Sequence record: MT446422.1
Strand: one strand, 5' to 3'
Source of the DNA: Escherichia virus TH57
DNA length: 64,000 nt
This document shows positions 45,240 to 61,833 of this stretch, in pieces. Within the stretch, counting starts at the first letter, position 1. Each line of letters begins with the position of its first letter. The notes under the pieces were generated by a model that worked only from the letters and a program-made list of their open reading frames with translations, ran no database searches and was not told the DNA's origin. Both the position numbers and the translations under genes were made by a program.

Positions 45240-45694
45240 TGACATTAAATGAAGTCTCTGAAGGACTTTATGTTGCAGCCAAATTTTCAGAATTAACTCT
45301 TGATGCGCTGGAAAATCTCCAGCGCTCTCTTAAGGTACCTAATCCCGTTCCTCGTGAAAAATTCCATTCCACTATTTGTTATTCCAGAGTAAATATTCCA
45401 TATGTTGTTGCCTCTGGTAGTTTCGAAGTAGCCAACTCTGGTCACCTGGAAGTATGGAAAACTGATGATGGGAGTACCCTGGTTCTTATACTGAATTCAG
45501 ATTATCTTAGTTGCAGACATATGTATGCACGAGCCATTGGCGCAACACATGATTTCCCGGACTATACTCCTCACATAACATTATCTTATAATGTTGGTCC
45601 TTTGACGTATAAAGGAGAAGTCCAGATTCCGGTTGTTTTGGACCGTGAATATAAAGAACCGCTAAAATTAAATTGGTCGGCGGATTTAAAGTAG
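45239..45694 (+). CDS. 57B: conserved hypothetical protein gp57B
   Basis: 151 aa directly after 57A as in T4. Confidence 0.7.
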
Positions 45695-45723
45695 TGTACA
45701 AATGAGTGTAGGTGCAGTAATAT
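45694..45723 (+). promoter_or_regulatory. early promoter cassette (GTGTAC -35-like, TAATAT -10 inside inverted repeat)
   Basis: gtgtac, 18-nt spacer, taatat; -10 sits in the loop of AGTGTAGG/CCTACACT. Confidence 0.5.
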
Positions 45724-45758
45724 GTTCCTACACTAACGAATGAACAAACGGAGTTAAA

Positions 45759-46091
45759 ATGAACATCAAGACTTACAACGAGTTTTTAGCCGAATCCGCC
45801 ATCAATGAGACCAAATCAATTGATGATAGTGAAGGCTCTCTGAAATTTGGTTTAACCAAAAATGCAGATGGTGTTTTCTTTCAGATTGGTAATGAACGTT
45901 TTCAAACGTCCAAATATTCCAAAGCTGCAGTTGAAGCTGTCCTGAAATCTGGTGGCAAGTGGAAAGGCAAAGAAGGTACTAAAGAAATTGGTATCGCTGT
46001 TGACGGCGGTATGGCTTATTTTAAAATTGGCGATGAACAATTTATTATGTCTGCTCGCGGACGTAAAGAACTGGCAAAACTTTATAAATAA
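45759..46091 (+). CDS. internal head protein-like protein with capsid targeting sequence
   Basis: N-terminus MNIKTYNEFLAE resembles the T4 IP capsid targeting sequence MKTYQEFIAE with (L/I)xE gp21 cleavage motif. Confidence 0.65.
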   Translation: MNIKTYNEFLAESAINETKSIDDSEGSLKFGLTKNADGVFFQIGNERFQTSKYSKAAVEAVLKSGGKWKGKEGTKEIGIAVDGGMAYFKIGDEQFIMSARGRKELAKLYK

Positions 46092-46099
46092 GGTTTCTT

Positions 46100-46372
46100 A
46101 TGAAAACTTTCAATGAATTTTTCAACGAGTCCCAACTGAATGAAGAAGTAAAAATTAGTAAAGCAGTCAAAGCTATGATTGACAATATCAATCACCTGTA
46201 TAGCATTGACTTGACTGACCATATAACAATTGGTAACAAACGCAACTTTTTCGCGTTTGACATTTCAGAACTTGACCAGAACCAAATTAATAACATTGAG
46301 CGTTTTGCCAATGACAAGGGTCTCCGCCATGAGACAGCTGGTTATAAAAAATATGCAATTTATCTAAAATAG
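46100..46372 (+). CDS. internal head protein-like protein (CTS-bearing)
   Basis: N-terminus MKTFNEFFNE. Confidence 0.65.
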   Translation: MKTFNEFFNESQLNEEVKISKAVKAMIDNINHLYSIDLTDHITIGNKRNFFAFDISELDQNQINNIERFANDKGLRHETAGYKKYAIYLK

Positions 46373-46380
46373 GATTTCAA

Positions 46381-46680
46381 ATGCAAACTTTTCATGAATT
46401 TTTGGTAGAAAATAATTACCTGGCAGAAGCAAAAACCTGGCCTCTGGGCCTTCAGAAGAAAAACACCTACAAATGGGTTGACTTCAAAGACAAAGGCGAC
46501 GCTGAAGACTTTGACCAGCTGCGTAAAAATGGTTATACTTTCCTTGACTCAAACTATAACAAAATTACCTCATTTAGTCAGAAATCCAGCATCGCATATA
46601 TTGAAACTGGTAAAAACACCCCTAAGAACATCACTGACGACTTCGCAGCTTATGGCGTGATTCGCGGTTCAAAAATGTAA
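46381..46680 (+). CDS. internal head protein-like protein (CTS-bearing)
   Basis: N-terminus MQTFHEFLVE; paralogous to 59410..59673 (DAEDF...KNGY.F motif). Confidence 0.65.
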   Translation: MQTFHEFLVENNYLAEAKTWPLGLQKKNTYKWVDFKDKGDAEDFDQLRKNGYTFLDSNYNKITSFSQKSSIAYIETGKNTPKNITDDFAAYGVIRGSKM

Positions 46681-46709
46681 TGTACATGATGGGATAGTTG
46701 CAGTATAAT
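46680..46709 (+). promoter_or_regulatory. early promoter cassette
   Basis: tgtaca, 17-nt spacer, tataat flanked by gggatag/atctca imperfect inverted repeat, then conserved catcaactactggag leader. Confidence 0.5.
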
Positions 46710-46735
46710 TATCTCATCAACTACTGGAGCTACTA

Positions 46736-47014
46736 ATGAAAACTTATCAAGAATTTATTAACGAATCAATTAGTCACCCGGATATGCTGGAAGACCTGAA
46801 AGGACATCTGATGGTTAAGGCCAAACCGGTTGATGGTGGCGCATTTGAGTTGTTTCTTGTTAAAGGCGAAAACGGTCCTGATAACAAGAAAGTTTCAGCA
46901 ATGATGTTGACTAAAGGTTACAAAGTCAGTTCTTCCTGGAATGCTCCATTCACTTACGCGGTAAGCCCTCGTGAACTGAAAAAAGTTAAAGCTGGACAAT
47001 ATACAAAAATTTAG
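46736..47014 (+). CDS. internal head protein-like protein (CTS-bearing)
   Basis: N-terminus MKTYQEFINE. Confidence 0.7.
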   Translation: MKTYQEFINESISHPDMLEDLKGHLMVKAKPVDGGAFELFLVKGENGPDNKKVSAMMLTKGYKVSSSWNAPFTYAVSPRELKKVKAGQYTKI

Positions 47015-59673: not shown

Positions 59674-59675
59674 CT

Positions 59676-59704
59676 GTTTACTTTATGATGGGATAGTGTA
59701 TAAT
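59676..59704 (+). promoter_or_regulatory. sigma70-type early promoter (best match in window)
   Basis: GTTTAC, 17-nt spacer, TATAAT; -10 inside GGGATA/TATCCC inverted repeat; conserved leader. Confidence 0.65.
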
Positions 59705-59729
59705 TATCCCATCAACTTGGAGCGAATAA

Positions 59730-60029
59730 ATGAAAACTTATCAAGAATTTATTACTGAAGCCAAAGCTCCTAAAGCATTTCAAATTGGGGTTCAGGGTAA
59801 TTTAGACCAACAATACGTTGATGCTATTGTAGCAAGCCTCGGCAAGCAGGGTGTACAAGTGGATTTGGTTGATTTTACTAAAGGTAATACTTTTAATATT
59901 GTCACATCTAAAGGTTCTTTAGCTAAAGTTAAAAAGGCCTTTGGCGTAGCACAAGCATATGAAATCGACCATTCCGAATTGGAAAATAAAGGTCGCCAGA
60001 ACACAATTAAAGGCTCTGGTTCTTTCTAA
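59730..60029 (+). CDS. internal head protein-like protein (CTS-bearing)
   Basis: N-terminus MKTYQEFITE. Confidence 0.7.
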   Translation: MKTYQEFITEAKAPKAFQIGVQGNLDQQYVDAIVASLGKQGVQVDLVDFTKGNTFNIVTSKGSLAKVKKAFGVAQAYEIDHSELENKGRQNTIKGSGSF

Positions 60030-60190
60030 TAAAGGCAAGCCGGCCCTCTCCTCATGAACGTCGCGTCCTCTGAGTGATGGACCTTTCCCTACCTGTAATA
60101 AGGTCGAGCCCGAGTGCGGTAAGGGGTTTACATTCGGATACATGGACGAATTAATGTGCCAAGGAATGGCCCTACAACTAAGAGACAACT

Positions 60191-60718
60191 ATGAAATTTT
60201 TAACTCCAATTTATCTAACCTTAATGCACGCCTTCGCTGAACGCGCCATTGAACGCTTAGATTCAGACCAATACACCTGGTATGAACCCGCTTCAAGAAT
60301 GCAAGAGTTTGGTACTCTTCGACTTGATGGTGGTCGTCAAACAGGTAAAACAAGTGCCCTTGCACAGTTCGCTGCGGATTGGGTTTCCAAGGGTAATGAT
60401 GTGATTGTTATGTCGAGTTCTTCACATCGCTCCCGAGAAATCTGTGATATAATAAAGCGGGTTTCTAAGGCGCAACCACATCTTAATGTTGAGCGACCTG
60501 GTTTTGTTGTATATGATACTGTTCGTTCATTTTTAGACGAAGATAATTTCCATAAGTACCGTGGATTGCGTTTTACGCGTCTTTTAATCATTATTGAAGA
60601 ACCTATTCGCCTCCCTACAATGGATAAGTTCTATGAAGCTTATCAGGTAATGATGAATAAATTTATGTGTCAAGGTGATAAGCCTTTGCCGTTATTCTTT
60701 GTGATAGGAATGCAATAA
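60191..60718 (+). CDS. hypothetical P-loop NTPase-like protein
   Basis: 175 aa; Walker A-like GGRQTGKTS and hydrophobic strand + acidic residues (LLIIIEEP) consistent with Walker B. Confidence 0.5.
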   Translation: MKFLTPIYLTLMHAFAERAIERLDSDQYTWYEPASRMQEFGTLRLDGGRQTGKTSALAQFAADWVSKGNDVIVMSSSSHRSREICDIIKRVSKAQPHLNVERPGFVVYDTVRSFLDEDNFHKYRGLRFTRLLIIIEEPIRLPTMDKFYEAYQVMMNKFMCQGDKPLPLFFVIGMQ

Positions 60719-61014
60719 TGACTCATGAAGAGCTTTTTGACCAAATCTATTTTATTCCAAAGGTTAGGTCTGAAGATTTCGTAAAGAATTTTGAAATCTT
60801 TAATAAAGCAAATTTCTTTGAGTACGTGTTTTTGTCTGGACCTTTTATTGGGTCCAGATTTCGTTGCACTGCTCCGAGTATTCGCTTAATGAAGCTGGTT
60901 CCTTACTTTACTCTGGAATTTATTTCTGGACCATGTAAGGGTATTATAACTCGTAGCCTCCTGACATATGACCAGGATGTGCGATTAATTAGTGACTGGA
61001 AAAAATATGTCTAA
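60718..61014 (+). CDS. hypothetical protein
   Basis: 98 aa, ATGA overlap with upstream gene. Confidence 0.5.
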   Translation: MTHEELFDQIYFIPKVRSEDFVKNFEIFNKANFFEYVFLSGPFIGSRFRCTAPSIRLMKLVPYFTLEFISGPCKGIITRSLLTYDQDVRLISDWKKYV

Positions 61015-61225
61015 ATTGACTATTGAAGGTTCTGAAGAAGCTCTGAAGATGTTTGTTGACTGGTTCCACGGTCAAGGCGAACAGGACTTTATGGAATGTT
61101 GGGACGGTGGCCAATGGAACGGTAAAGAAATTGTTTATCCGAGCACATATATCTCTGTTCGCGGCGGATATGATGGCCTTCGTTTGGTAGAATATGATAT
61201 TGCATCTGATGAGGAAGTGAAATGA
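61007..61225 (+). CDS. hypothetical protein
   Basis: 72 aa from ATG at 61007. Confidence 0.45.
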   Translation: MSKLTIEGSEEALKMFVDWFHGQGEQDFMECWDGGQWNGKEIVYPSTYISVRGGYDGLRLVEYDIASDEEVK

Positions 61226-61500
61226 TTGAAGACATCAAAGGTTATAAGCCACATACCGACGATAAAATCGGTAAAGTGAATGCTATCAAAGATGCAGAAG
61301 TTCGATTGGGGTTAATGTTTAAAGCTCTGGAAGATGAACATGTTACCTATTATATGAACTTGGATACCGAAGAAGTTTCTGAACAAGAACTGGACCAGGC
61401 CCATGAACGCATCACCCAGATTCGTAACGCGATTGACCGTCTGAAAGAAGCAAGCATGTGGGCGTGTCGTTCCGTTTTCCAACCCGAGGAAAAATACTAA
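61222..61500 (+). CDS. hypothetical protein
   Basis: 92 aa. Confidence 0.5.
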
Positions 61501-61805
61501 TGTCACAGATTAATTCTGGTTTTGGTTATGAGTTATCAACAGCTTCTCATCGCCGCATAACCAATTCCAATCCGTTTGGATTTACATCAAAACCCAAGAA
61601 AATCCAGGGGTTAGATGACTTTCAGGAAGTGATTCGTCAAGCTTTCCAGGACTATGCTCAATATCTGAAAGAAGATAAAGAAGACTGTCTGGAAGAAGAC
61701 GAAATCGAGTATTATGAGCAACGTCTCGAACAGATTAAGAATTTACATGCTGTTCGTGATGAAGTTGCCCAAGCAATGAATAAGCTAATTTCTTTTAAAG
61801 AGTAG
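61500..61805 (+). CDS. hypothetical protein
   Basis: 101 aa from ATG at 61500 overlapping upstream stop. Confidence 0.5.
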
Positions 61806-61833
61806 TGTACAAGCAGATTGAAATGAGTTATGA
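61805..61833 (+). promoter_or_regulatory. early promoter cassette
   Basis: gtgtac, 17-nt spacer, ttatga, leader ttatcccatcaa. Confidence 0.4.

Follow-up and report, generated by a model that had tools for sequence, protein, structure and literature searches.

Repeated promoter and stem-loop cassettes of probable PeSL type before the small early genes of Escherichia virus TH57

Why does nearly the same short piece of DNA, with a promoter-like site and often a palindrome, stand before so many small genes of Escherichia virus TH57? We consider this question for a window of 64,000 nucleotides (nt) from this phage (sequence record MT446422.1; the window is the whole stretch of DNA that was analysed), and in particular for the region of 45.6-62 kb, where about 15 copies of a module of 60-95 bases, made of a promoter, a hairpin and a ribosome site, lie 5' of small early genes. 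The region is about 94% identical to the T4-like coliphages of the VR7/SP18 group, which form the genus Gaprivervirus, and any single public record covers at most 80% of it. We consider it probable, with good confidence, that these modules are regulatory cassettes of the PeSL type, which would work as early expression modules, with the hairpin as an insulator, and as substrates for recombination.

A PeSL has been defined as an AT-rich tract in which the upstream gene has its stop codon, followed by a sigma70-like early promoter and a stem-loop and finally by a Shine-Dalgarno (SD) sequence and an ATG, and such elements are enriched in hyperplastic regions (PMC2839356; PMC4122927). The stem-loop lies mostly in the interval from the -35 to the -10 or overlaps the -10 (PMC2839356). 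Later work brought T4/PST and KVP40/nt-1 into the class, with degraded copies and copies with a Mot box among the elements, and tied the class to the polymorphic internal-protein locus (PMC4122927). Judged by their letters, the cassettes of the window belong to this type, matching the definition feature by feature. The class, its architecture and its proposed role were thus already published in 2010 and 2014, and what is done here is to extend the concept, not to alter it, to one more genus; in a full-text literature search the term PeSL turns up in just three papers, and none of these deals with this genus.

Architecture of the cassettes

We begin with the junctions between the genes 57B and regB, where the + strand carries every gene. 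Thirteen junctions have a full promoter-like site, one (60126) has a weak site and one (51056) lacks the -35. The general form is GTGTAC/GTTTAC-N17-19-TATAAT. The -35 hexamers of the full sites start at 45694, 46680 (ATGTAC), 47014, 47303, 49262, 49781 (TTTTAC, within GTTTTAC), 50150, 50677 (GTATAC), 56027, 58561, 59022, 59676 and 61805; GTGTAC is found at eight sites and GTTTAC at three (58561, 59676 and the weak 60126, whose -10 is ATTAAT), the other forms once each. Among the -10 hexamers A2 and T6 are invariant, and tatCCC or gatTCC follows directly 3'. The spacer is 17-19 nt if the hexamer is read as GTGTAC; in the canonical register (TGTACa = TTGACA) it is 16-18 nt, mostly 17. An extended -10 (TGn) is rejected, the three bases before TATAAT being mostly GTG or CAG. 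The mean AT content of the 25 nt before the -35 is 0.69, a modest excess over the regional 0.61, and at 9 of 13 sites the -35 is 0-3 nt away from the stop codon of the upstream gene.

Sites of this form are not scattered at random over the window. The strict pattern (GT[GT]TAC, 16-19 nt, TATAAT with at most one mismatch) has eight matches on the + strand, all of them between 47.0 and 61.8 kb, and two on the - strand, while in 200 dinucleotide shuffles of the whole window, both strands, there are 1.3 matches on average and never more than 5. Of the 20 matches that a relaxed pattern has on the + strand, 16 fall inside the 16.4 kb region of the 64 kb window. The T4-type early consensus has GTTTAC at -36 to -31, A-11, T-7, a GT-rich stretch 5' of -12 and a C-rich stretch at -3 to -1 (PMC1524935); the promoters of the window agree with it in the GTTTAC-type -35, A-11, T-7, the GT-rich stretch and the C-rich -3 to -1. 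Early promoters of the T4 type have been described as very strong, with UP elements.

The hairpins are assessed by folding a segment of 37-40 nt at each site, which begins where the -35 ends and runs on for 14 nt beyond the -10, against shuffles (z). Strong hairpins at the -10 are found at nine of the 15 sites (z -3.8 to -8.5), with the -10 in the loop or in the loop and the 3' arm. One further site (50677) has a hairpin round the -35, and one (49262) lies 3' of a terminator. Folding against shuffles gives no -10 hairpin at 49262, 50150, 60126 and 61805.

Downstream of the promoters, repeat finding and multiple alignment give two families of leaders. The type 1 leader, tatcccatcaactactGGAG, is found at 46680, 47014, 47303 and 59676, and variants of it precede denV and regB; the type 2 leader, gattccatactgagttacc...GGAGAATAAAATG, is found at 49262, 50150 and 50677. 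Cassettes of the same type are 80-94% identical over 47-60 nt, and the identity reaches over up to 94 nt where the capsid-targeting codons of internal-protein genes are included. Each of the 15 sites has a purine-rich SD sequence 5-9 nt ahead of its ATG, GGAG at most of them and otherwise GAGGA, GGGA, GGA or GAGA. The exact strong RegB-site consensus GGAGRAYARAA occurs four times, always just before a start codon (47352, 49841, 50738, 54662), and the leader of denV has one mismatch to it; RegB would be expected to cleave the GGAG sites of such leaders. The 50-nt type-2 promoter-leader is present at 276 places in 40 phage records, with 6-10 copies per genome and essentially in this genus only, and type 1 has 1-4 copies per genome. 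From these counts, the cassettes are genus-specific dispersed repeats which extend beyond this window.

Most of what the original prediction had read from the letters of this DNA stands. The shared architecture and the quoted motifs are all found in their places, the spacer of 17-19 nt is right with GTGTAC as the hexamer, and repeat finding and alignment bear out the two conserved leaders, the second at each of its sites. Near-identical copies of the first had been claimed at five places, four of which hold; the fifth, 49781, joins a type-1 promoter and hairpin to a type-2 leader. The GGGAACAT site had been counted as a full cassette, but there is no GTGTAC there in the window. An inverted repeat in or next to the -10 had been ascribed to all sites; of the 15, only nine have a strong -10 hairpin, and 59022 has a weak one. 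Nor are the sites purely intergenic, as had been said, because in most cases the -35 borders on the stop codon with which the preceding gene ends, or shares letters with it (TAGTGTAC, TAATGTAC), and at 59022 lies within denV.

Gene gain and loss in related phages

Do genes come and go at these cassettes? To answer this question, we compare the window with nine Gaprivervirus loci and with JS98. Close relatives differ from the window by gene-sized insertions and deletions (indels), and several single-gene modules that have two flanking cassettes in the window are variably present. The module of open reading frame (ORF) 46736 is absent from VR25, that of ORF 47069 from SP18, fPSFA, CJ20 and phage 212, that of ORF 49852 from SP18, fPSFA, phage 212 and RZ, that of ORF 50748 from RZ and DK-13, and that of ORF 59730 from fPSFA. 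There are also extra genes in relatives exactly at the cassettes before ORF 56084, denV and e.6: genes are inserted at the 56027 cassette in SP18, phage 212, VR7 and JS98, and an internal-protein gene at the denV cassette in five relatives. We infer, rather than observe, the direction of each gain or loss.

The ends of the indels can be placed more closely. At several of them both flanks align to one stretch of the relative, with overlaps of -48, -32 to -39 and -13 nt, so the deletion ends lie in direct repeats. In two relatives the crossover is found inside the cassette by three-way alignment. SP18 has a single hybrid cassette, which tracks 49781 through TATAATTATCCCATA and then the 50150 cassette into ORF 50222, and VR25 has a single hybrid that is 46680 at its left and 47014 at its right. 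Where each of these phages has one hybrid cassette the window has two cassettes and a gene, which makes the window a sequence-level example of gene swapping between sister phages. Given the 80-94% identity of cassettes of the same type, phage homologous recombination can cross neighbouring cassettes. When breakpoints are taken as the ends of BLAST pieces of at least 150 nt and at least 85% identity, 18 of the 46 homology-boundary clusters fall inside cassettes, which make up 9.8% of the region (binomial p 1.3e-7 against a uniform distribution).

In the second internal-protein cluster the repeat unit of the cassette is carried on into the genes. A 30-nt 5' coding repeat, ATGAAAACTTATCAAGAATTTATT.., which encodes the capsid-targeting N-terminus MKTYQEFI, is found by repeat finding on the + strand at 59082, 59410 and 59730, within 59082..59759, and also at 46736 and 47069. 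These coding repeats themselves serve as crossover sites, with crossovers in the second cluster within the capsid-targeting codons and overlapping junctions at 59111/59410 and 59111/59728.

The claim that the cassettes allow modular shuffling of genes is therefore supported, by the flanked single-gene modules that are variably present and by the crossovers inside cassettes in SP18 and VR25. A second claim, that the distribution of the cassettes matches the duplicated gene families, is right for the internal-protein genes and for the pair 49343/50222 and wrong for the five tandem paralogues at 52988-54248, between which there are no cassettes.

Could the cassettes be nothing else than ordinary early promoters, similar to one another through functional constraint and with no special role in recombination? 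We hold this to be unlikely, and the evidence on it is divided. Several points speak for it and so weigh against a role of the cassettes in exchange. If junctions are compared with junctions, indels hit 11 of 15 with a cassette and 16 of 29 others, an excess of breakpoints at cassettes that is not significant (odds ratio 2.2, Fisher p 0.20). Some indels have another repeat or no evident one (47925/48398, 48483, 54253), and other short repeats are used for indels as well, namely the C-termini of paralogues, a 19-nt repeat at ribosome binding sites (RBS) and the capsid-targeting codons; recombination between paralogues is seen in relatives at 53576/53742 and 53787/54039, within 52988-54248. Of the conserved sequence, a part coincides with consensus positions and with the RegB-site consensus, and the high identity between cassettes may in part reflect selection on promoter, leader and RegB site and not recent exchange. 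Against ordinary promoters, the identity also spans spacer and leader positions outside the consensus (94% over 47 nt for 49805 vs 50702, 90% over 60 nt for 46670 vs 47004), the hybrid cassettes of SP18 and VR25 cross inside the repeat, the overlapping junctions put deletion ends in direct repeats, and the cassette at 49781 is itself a chimera of type 1 and type 2.

The 19-nt repeat just mentioned, AATGAGGAAAATATTATGA, is a translation-initiation repeat with three copies on the + strand (54869-54887, 55050-55068 and 56069-56087), and it coincides with ends of indels in relatives at 54871/54887, 55035-55052 and 56071.

The hairpin and the proposed working of the cassettes

We turn to the hairpin, whose sequence is not the conserved part. 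Five stem sequences of the window are unrelated to one another. Among orthologous promoters, which were gathered from viral contigs, the stems before e.6 in T4-like lineages stand in one place and read GGGAACAT (this genus), GAGGACA (JS98-like), AGGCTCAT, TGTGTAGGAGA and a weak ATTAGA; before the orthologues of ORF 56084 they read GTGGGACCAT, GAGGACAT, TGAGGCTATC and the short AGGA/TCCT of T4-like genomes. In nearly all of the 22 distinct arms the hairpin is centred 1-5 nt upstream of the middle of the -10, and in 21 of the 22 distinct 5' arms G outnumbers C, a strand asymmetry. Unrelated stems at one position, across lineages, argue that the hairpin is under selection as a structure rather than as a sequence. 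In six distinct orthologues of the 56027 stem, one pair occurs as U-A, U.G and C-G, and 98% of the cells are paired. A type-2 cassette of SP18 has a spacer, TCAGTATGGA, that is now complementary to the conserved leader TCCATACTGA, so that a hairpin is built on a fixed 3' arm. This cassette (12623-12690) stands at the 56027 junction, before an extra small gene of SP18.

Hairpin and promoter are separable. There is no hairpin at four promoters and a weak one at a fifth, hairpins that come without a promoter stand at gene ends (51726-51742, 54254-54269 and 58048-58062), and the 49262 site, which follows a true terminator, has no hairpin at its -10. This terminator, at 49202-49217, is the only one among the intergenic hairpins of the region that a terminator scan accepts. 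The scan of the + strand finds no U-run 3' of the -10 hairpins, which are therefore not canonical intrinsic terminators, and this candidate role is ruled out.

How would such a cassette work? The promoter activity we infer from the consensus and from the experiments on RB49/phi1 and T4. Host RNA polymerase would fire at every cassette right after infection, starting about 7 nt past the -10, and each small gene would have a transcript of its own, with a leader of 19-45 nt and a GGAG RBS, and so be expressed individually. RegB, the product of the gene that follows the last cassette, would then cleave these leaders at GGAG and inactivate the messages at a later stage. Since the stop codon abuts the -35 and the own transcript would start in the 3' arm, the complete hairpin can form only in RNA that comes from upstream. 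The gap from stop to start is the only untranslated room for a structure at the 3' end, which would explain the constant position of the hairpin. In such RNA the hairpin is probably an attenuator, or a barrier at the 3' end or against decay, and would insulate the modules from one another; for one stem-loop of RB49 an insulating activity was measured (PMC2839356). Finally, the near-identical cassettes would supply the short homology that T4-type recombination needs, whereby whole genes could be deleted, duplicated or exchanged and a working hybrid cassette left behind.

Insulation is the least secure of these steps, with no U-runs behind the hairpins and with arms that differ in G and C. Two more observations count against a selected hairpin. 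The G-rich 5' arms overlap the known promoter consensus, and the pairing potential may partly reflect constraints on the promoter; and 321 of 500 shuffles reach the covariation that the 56027 stem has within the genus, where divergence is too low for significance.

The hairpin could act on translation instead, the 5' arm in read-through RNA helping to hide the RBS, as an early counterpart of the control of e, soc and 49 in T4. We find this quite improbable, with evidence of both kinds. The near-identical cassettes of denV and regB in JS98 (16077-16135 and 18385-18445) do pair the spacer CTCCTGTAG with the RBS CTACAGGAG, the main stem is flanked by CTCC..GGAG in the denV cassette of the window and by CCTCC..GGAGG in VR25/VR20, and at 13 of 15 sites the SD sequence is predicted to be unpaired with less probability in read-through RNA than in the transcript from the cassette's own promoter, a small drop that has no length-matched control. 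The main stem, however, mostly ends 5-30 nt before the SD sequence and leaves it outside, and a modest drop in accessibility is expected for any longer RNA. With so small an effect, and stems that mostly exclude the SD sequence, sequestration is rejected as the main role of the hairpin and kept as a minor rival only. The classical version of such control is found in the window at gene e. Before e (58039-58071, + strand) there is a hairpin CCCCT-atata-AGGGG (58048-58062) over the RBS, with a late-promoter-like AATAAATA just 5' of it, an arrangement of the T4 type that would block translation of e from early transcripts.

A role of the inverted repeat as DNA is very unlikely, be it as the operator at which a dimeric regulator would turn early promoters off or as a cruciform that is cut (e.g. 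by endonuclease VII) to start recombination. In its favour, the repeats have their centre in the promoter core, so that a protein or a cruciform there would block or alter initiation, and the PeSL authors speculated on a DNA-binding protein at the stem-loop. But the stems are unrelated between sites and lineages, which excludes one sequence-specific protein and rules out a common operator for it, the G-rich 5' arms (21 of 22) are not predicted by a symmetric DNA site, and at four promoters the repeat is missing altogether. Among the imperfect pairs G.T (G.U in RNA of the + strand) outnumbers A.C, a slight excess that would speak for RNA and against DNA pairing, in counts so small and non-independent that nothing is concluded from it.

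The cassette before e.6 shows how a PeSL-type element may change its class. At 51056 a deletion of 4 nt in GTGTACGC, relative to CJ20 and VR25, has left tag-TGCTTTA, N12, TAGTAT, which fits the consensus of MotA-box middle promoters, (a/t)(a/t)(a/t)TGCTTtA at 12 +/- 1 bp from the -10. The form is shared with SP18, whereas CJ20 and VR25 retain GTGTAC. The window has neither the gene of MotA nor that of AsiA; in VR7, of the same genus, both are annotated. We consider a conversion from early to middle promoter probable at e.6; by so small a change within the cassette, a gene could be moved from the early to the MotA-dependent middle class. Promoters of the MotA-box type (TGCTTyA, N12-13, TATAAT) are also found elsewhere in the window, at 3678 (+), 8993 (+) and 43722 (-), with a common 3' sequence, TATAATggttctagacc, which suggests a second family of cassettes, with middle promoters. 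A further candidate, TGCTTTA, N12, TATTAT, lies just 5' of tRNA-Met (48401-48425, + strand) and may serve the tRNA cluster. The tRNA cluster of T4 has a middle promoter at the corresponding place.

It is tempting to generalize. At T4-type early promoters at large the -10 hairpin might be an element that is under selection in its own right and specific to one strand, its position kept across genera and its sequence turned over, with a dual role as insulator of the upstream module's RNA at the 3' end and as a preferred point of crossover or breakage. We offer this as a speculation that is likelier to be wrong; if it were true, each early promoter would be a portable junction in a gene-cassette system that needs no integrase.

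What do the cassettes mean for the reading of such genomes? It is in hyperplastic regions that T4-like phages have the greater part of their unknown host-adaptive genes, among them those of internal proteins that are injected and act against the defences of the host. The cassettes would mark transcription units that are missing from the current annotations of these genomes and would allow one to foresee which single genes a phage can lose or exchange. They may also be natural landing sites for the engineering of therapeutic T4-like phages.

The cassettes in turn and their counterparts in known systems

By synteny with annotated relatives, the gene order is 57B, a first internal-protein cluster, trna.4, trna.3 and two tRNA genes, followed by the small ORFs e.6 to e.2, then nudE, e and denV, the second internal-protein cluster, vs.8-vs.3 and regB (61862-62320). 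PHROG searches place the small genes at both ends of the region in families of internal head or virion proteins, with paralogues common to both internal-protein clusters. The ORFs 49343 and 50222 have a common C-terminal domain and form a paralogue pair.

All cassettes are on the + strand. The first (45694..45761; GTGTAC-N18-TAATAT, GGAG RBS) stands before ORF 45759, the first gene of its internal-protein cluster; the stop codon of 57B overlaps its -35, and the hairpin AGTGTAGG/CCTACACT (45705-45734, z -5.0) has the -10 in its loop. There follow three cassettes of type 1. That before ORF 46736, with its MKTYQEFI.. N-terminus (46680..46738; ATGTAC-N18-TATAAT, leader tatctcatcaactactGGAG), has a hairpin with one G.U pair (46687-46719, z -5.2). 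That before the ip6-like ORF 47069 (47014..47071) is 90% identical to the 46680 copy and has a hairpin with one A.C mismatch (47021-47053, z -3.8). The third (47303..47364; GTGTAC-N19-TATAAT) stands before trna.4, with the hairpin ATGGGATA/TATCCCAT (47317-47341, z -4.8) and the RBS GGAGAATAAAA, which is the exact strong RegB-site consensus.

Beyond the tRNA genes, the type-2 cassette 49262..49345 (GTGTAC-N18-CATAAT, leader gattccatactgagttac..) has no -10 hairpin (z +0.6) and lies 45 nt 3' of the intrinsic terminator 49202-49217. The chimeric cassette before ORF 49852 (49780..49854) has a type-1 promoter, the hairpin TGGGATA/TATCCCA (49794-49816, z -5.4) and the type-2 leader ..ccatactgagttaac..GGAGAATAAAA. 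The next two are of type 2: the one before ORF 50222 (50150..50224) has weak pairing of 5-7 bp round the -10 (z -1.1), and the one before ORF 50748 (50672..50750; GTATAC-N18-CATAAT, RBS GGAGAATAAAA) has a G5/C5 hairpin, GGGGG..CCCCC (50672-50691), that encloses the -35 of site 50677. In the cassette before e.6 (51059..51128), whose -35 is lost, TGCTTTA (51059-51065) and, after N12, TAGTAT (51078-51083) are accompanied by the hairpin GGGAACAT/ATGTTCCC (51068-51089, z -4.3).

Farther downstream, the cassette before ORF 56084 (56027..56086; GTGTAC-N18-CACAAT) has the 10-bp hairpin GTGGGACTAT/ATAGTCCCAC (56039-56064, z -8.5), and that before denV (58561..58619; GTTTAC-N18-TATAAT) has the hairpin TGATAGGGT/ACCCTATCA (58576-58600, z -6.2), of which the -10 is the loop. 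The cassette before the ip10-like ORF 59082 (59022..59084), with its -35 within denV and the stop codon in its spacer, has a weak hairpin of 5 bp (59041-59064, z -2.5), no better than shuffles. The type-1 cassette before the ip7-like ORF 59730 (59676..59732; GTTTAC-N17-TATAAT) has the 10-bp hairpin TGATGGGATA/TATCCCATCA (59686-59714, z -6.9). The weak promoter-like site before vs.8 (60126..60193; GTTTAC-N18-ATTAAT) has no hairpin and is conserved in relatives, and the cassette before regB (61805..61864; GTGTAC-N18-TATGAT), also with no hairpin, has the type-1-like leader tatcccatcaaac..GGAG.

Three other stretches of the + strand are recorded here. The five tandem small paralogues at 52988-54248 are translationally close-packed and share the C-terminus ..W-V/F-S/N-S-S..C-stop. 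The 336 nt of 48897-49232, 3' of the tRNAs, have no ORF and fold with z -6.0 against shuffles; the stretch is closed by GAAAC/GUUUC beside a T-arm-like GGTTCGAATCC (49135-49145), ends 3' in the intrinsic terminator 49202-49217, and has no Rfam family and no ARAGORN call. We regard it as a candidate counterpart of the T4 stable RNAs C and D. The G+C-rich spacer of 161 nt between the ip7-like gene and vs.8 (60030-60190) is conserved in relatives, and its folding (z -0.26 against shuffles) gives no sign of a structured RNA. An Rfam search of 45-64 kb returns two tRNAs only and no RNA family that accounts for the leaders or hairpins.

We close by comparing the cassettes with known systems. Integron attC cassettes are alike in outcome, being single-gene modules that are bounded by imperfect inverted repeats, excisable as circles and reinsertable. 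The cassettes of the window, in contrast, come with no integrase or attC structure, have a promoter for each module and presumably use homologous recombination, and we mean the likeness as an analogy only. In T4, the genes e, soc and 49 likewise have a promoter within the DNA of a hairpin, with transcripts from upstream that include the hairpin in full and internal transcripts that lack the 5' arm (PMC3014915). There, however, the promoter is a late one and the hairpin hides the RBS, while here the promoter is early and the stem mostly ends short of the RBS.

The early promoters of T4, RB69, RB49 and 44RR (Nolan et al. 2006, PMC1524935; Hinton 2010, PMC2988021) share with the window the GTTTAC-type -35, TATAAT, A-11/T-7, the GT-rich stretch, the C-rich -3 to -1, the A-rich upstream sequence and the place before early genes and novel ORFs. 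They differ in the third position of the -35, which is mostly G here, and the sites are treated there as a consensus, with no word on the inverted repeat; the text of PMC1524935 has no 'stem-loop', 'palindrom' or 'inverted repeat'. Comeau et al. (2014, PMC4122927) described PeSLs in T4/PST and KVP40/nt-1 and PmSLs in nt-1. These follow one concept with the cassettes of the window, in closer relatives, and have a TTTACW-N17-TAYWAT promoter and short AGNA..TCNT stems; T4-like orthologues have AGGA..TCCT and AAGAG..CTCTT round the -10, and the 51059 site resembles their 'degraded' or Mot-box (PmSL) elements. The stems of the window are longer (7-10 bp, and up to 14 with G.U, vs 4-5 bp) and lie mostly round the -10, whereas those of PST lie just upstream of the promoter according to the 2014 figure legend; the leaders form two genus-specific, near-identical families, unlike those elements.

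The PeSLs of RB49/phi1 (Arbiol et al. 2010, PMC2839356) likewise have many copies between the small genes of a hyperplastic region, with indels and replacements at the elements. For them promoter, terminator and mini-circle activities were measured, whereas the cassettes of the window are described here from their sequence. The -35 is a near-perfect TTGACA there and GTGTAC/GTTTAC here, and their stems are mostly of a G-tract and a C-tract, while the stems here are mixed G-rich/C-rich, except for 50672-50691, which is of the tract type. To this published picture the window adds several details: the stems are long and change between lineages while their position stays fixed, the 5' arm is consistently G-rich, one cassette is a chimera, one early promoter has probably been converted to a middle promoter, and there are leaders with the RegB consensus.

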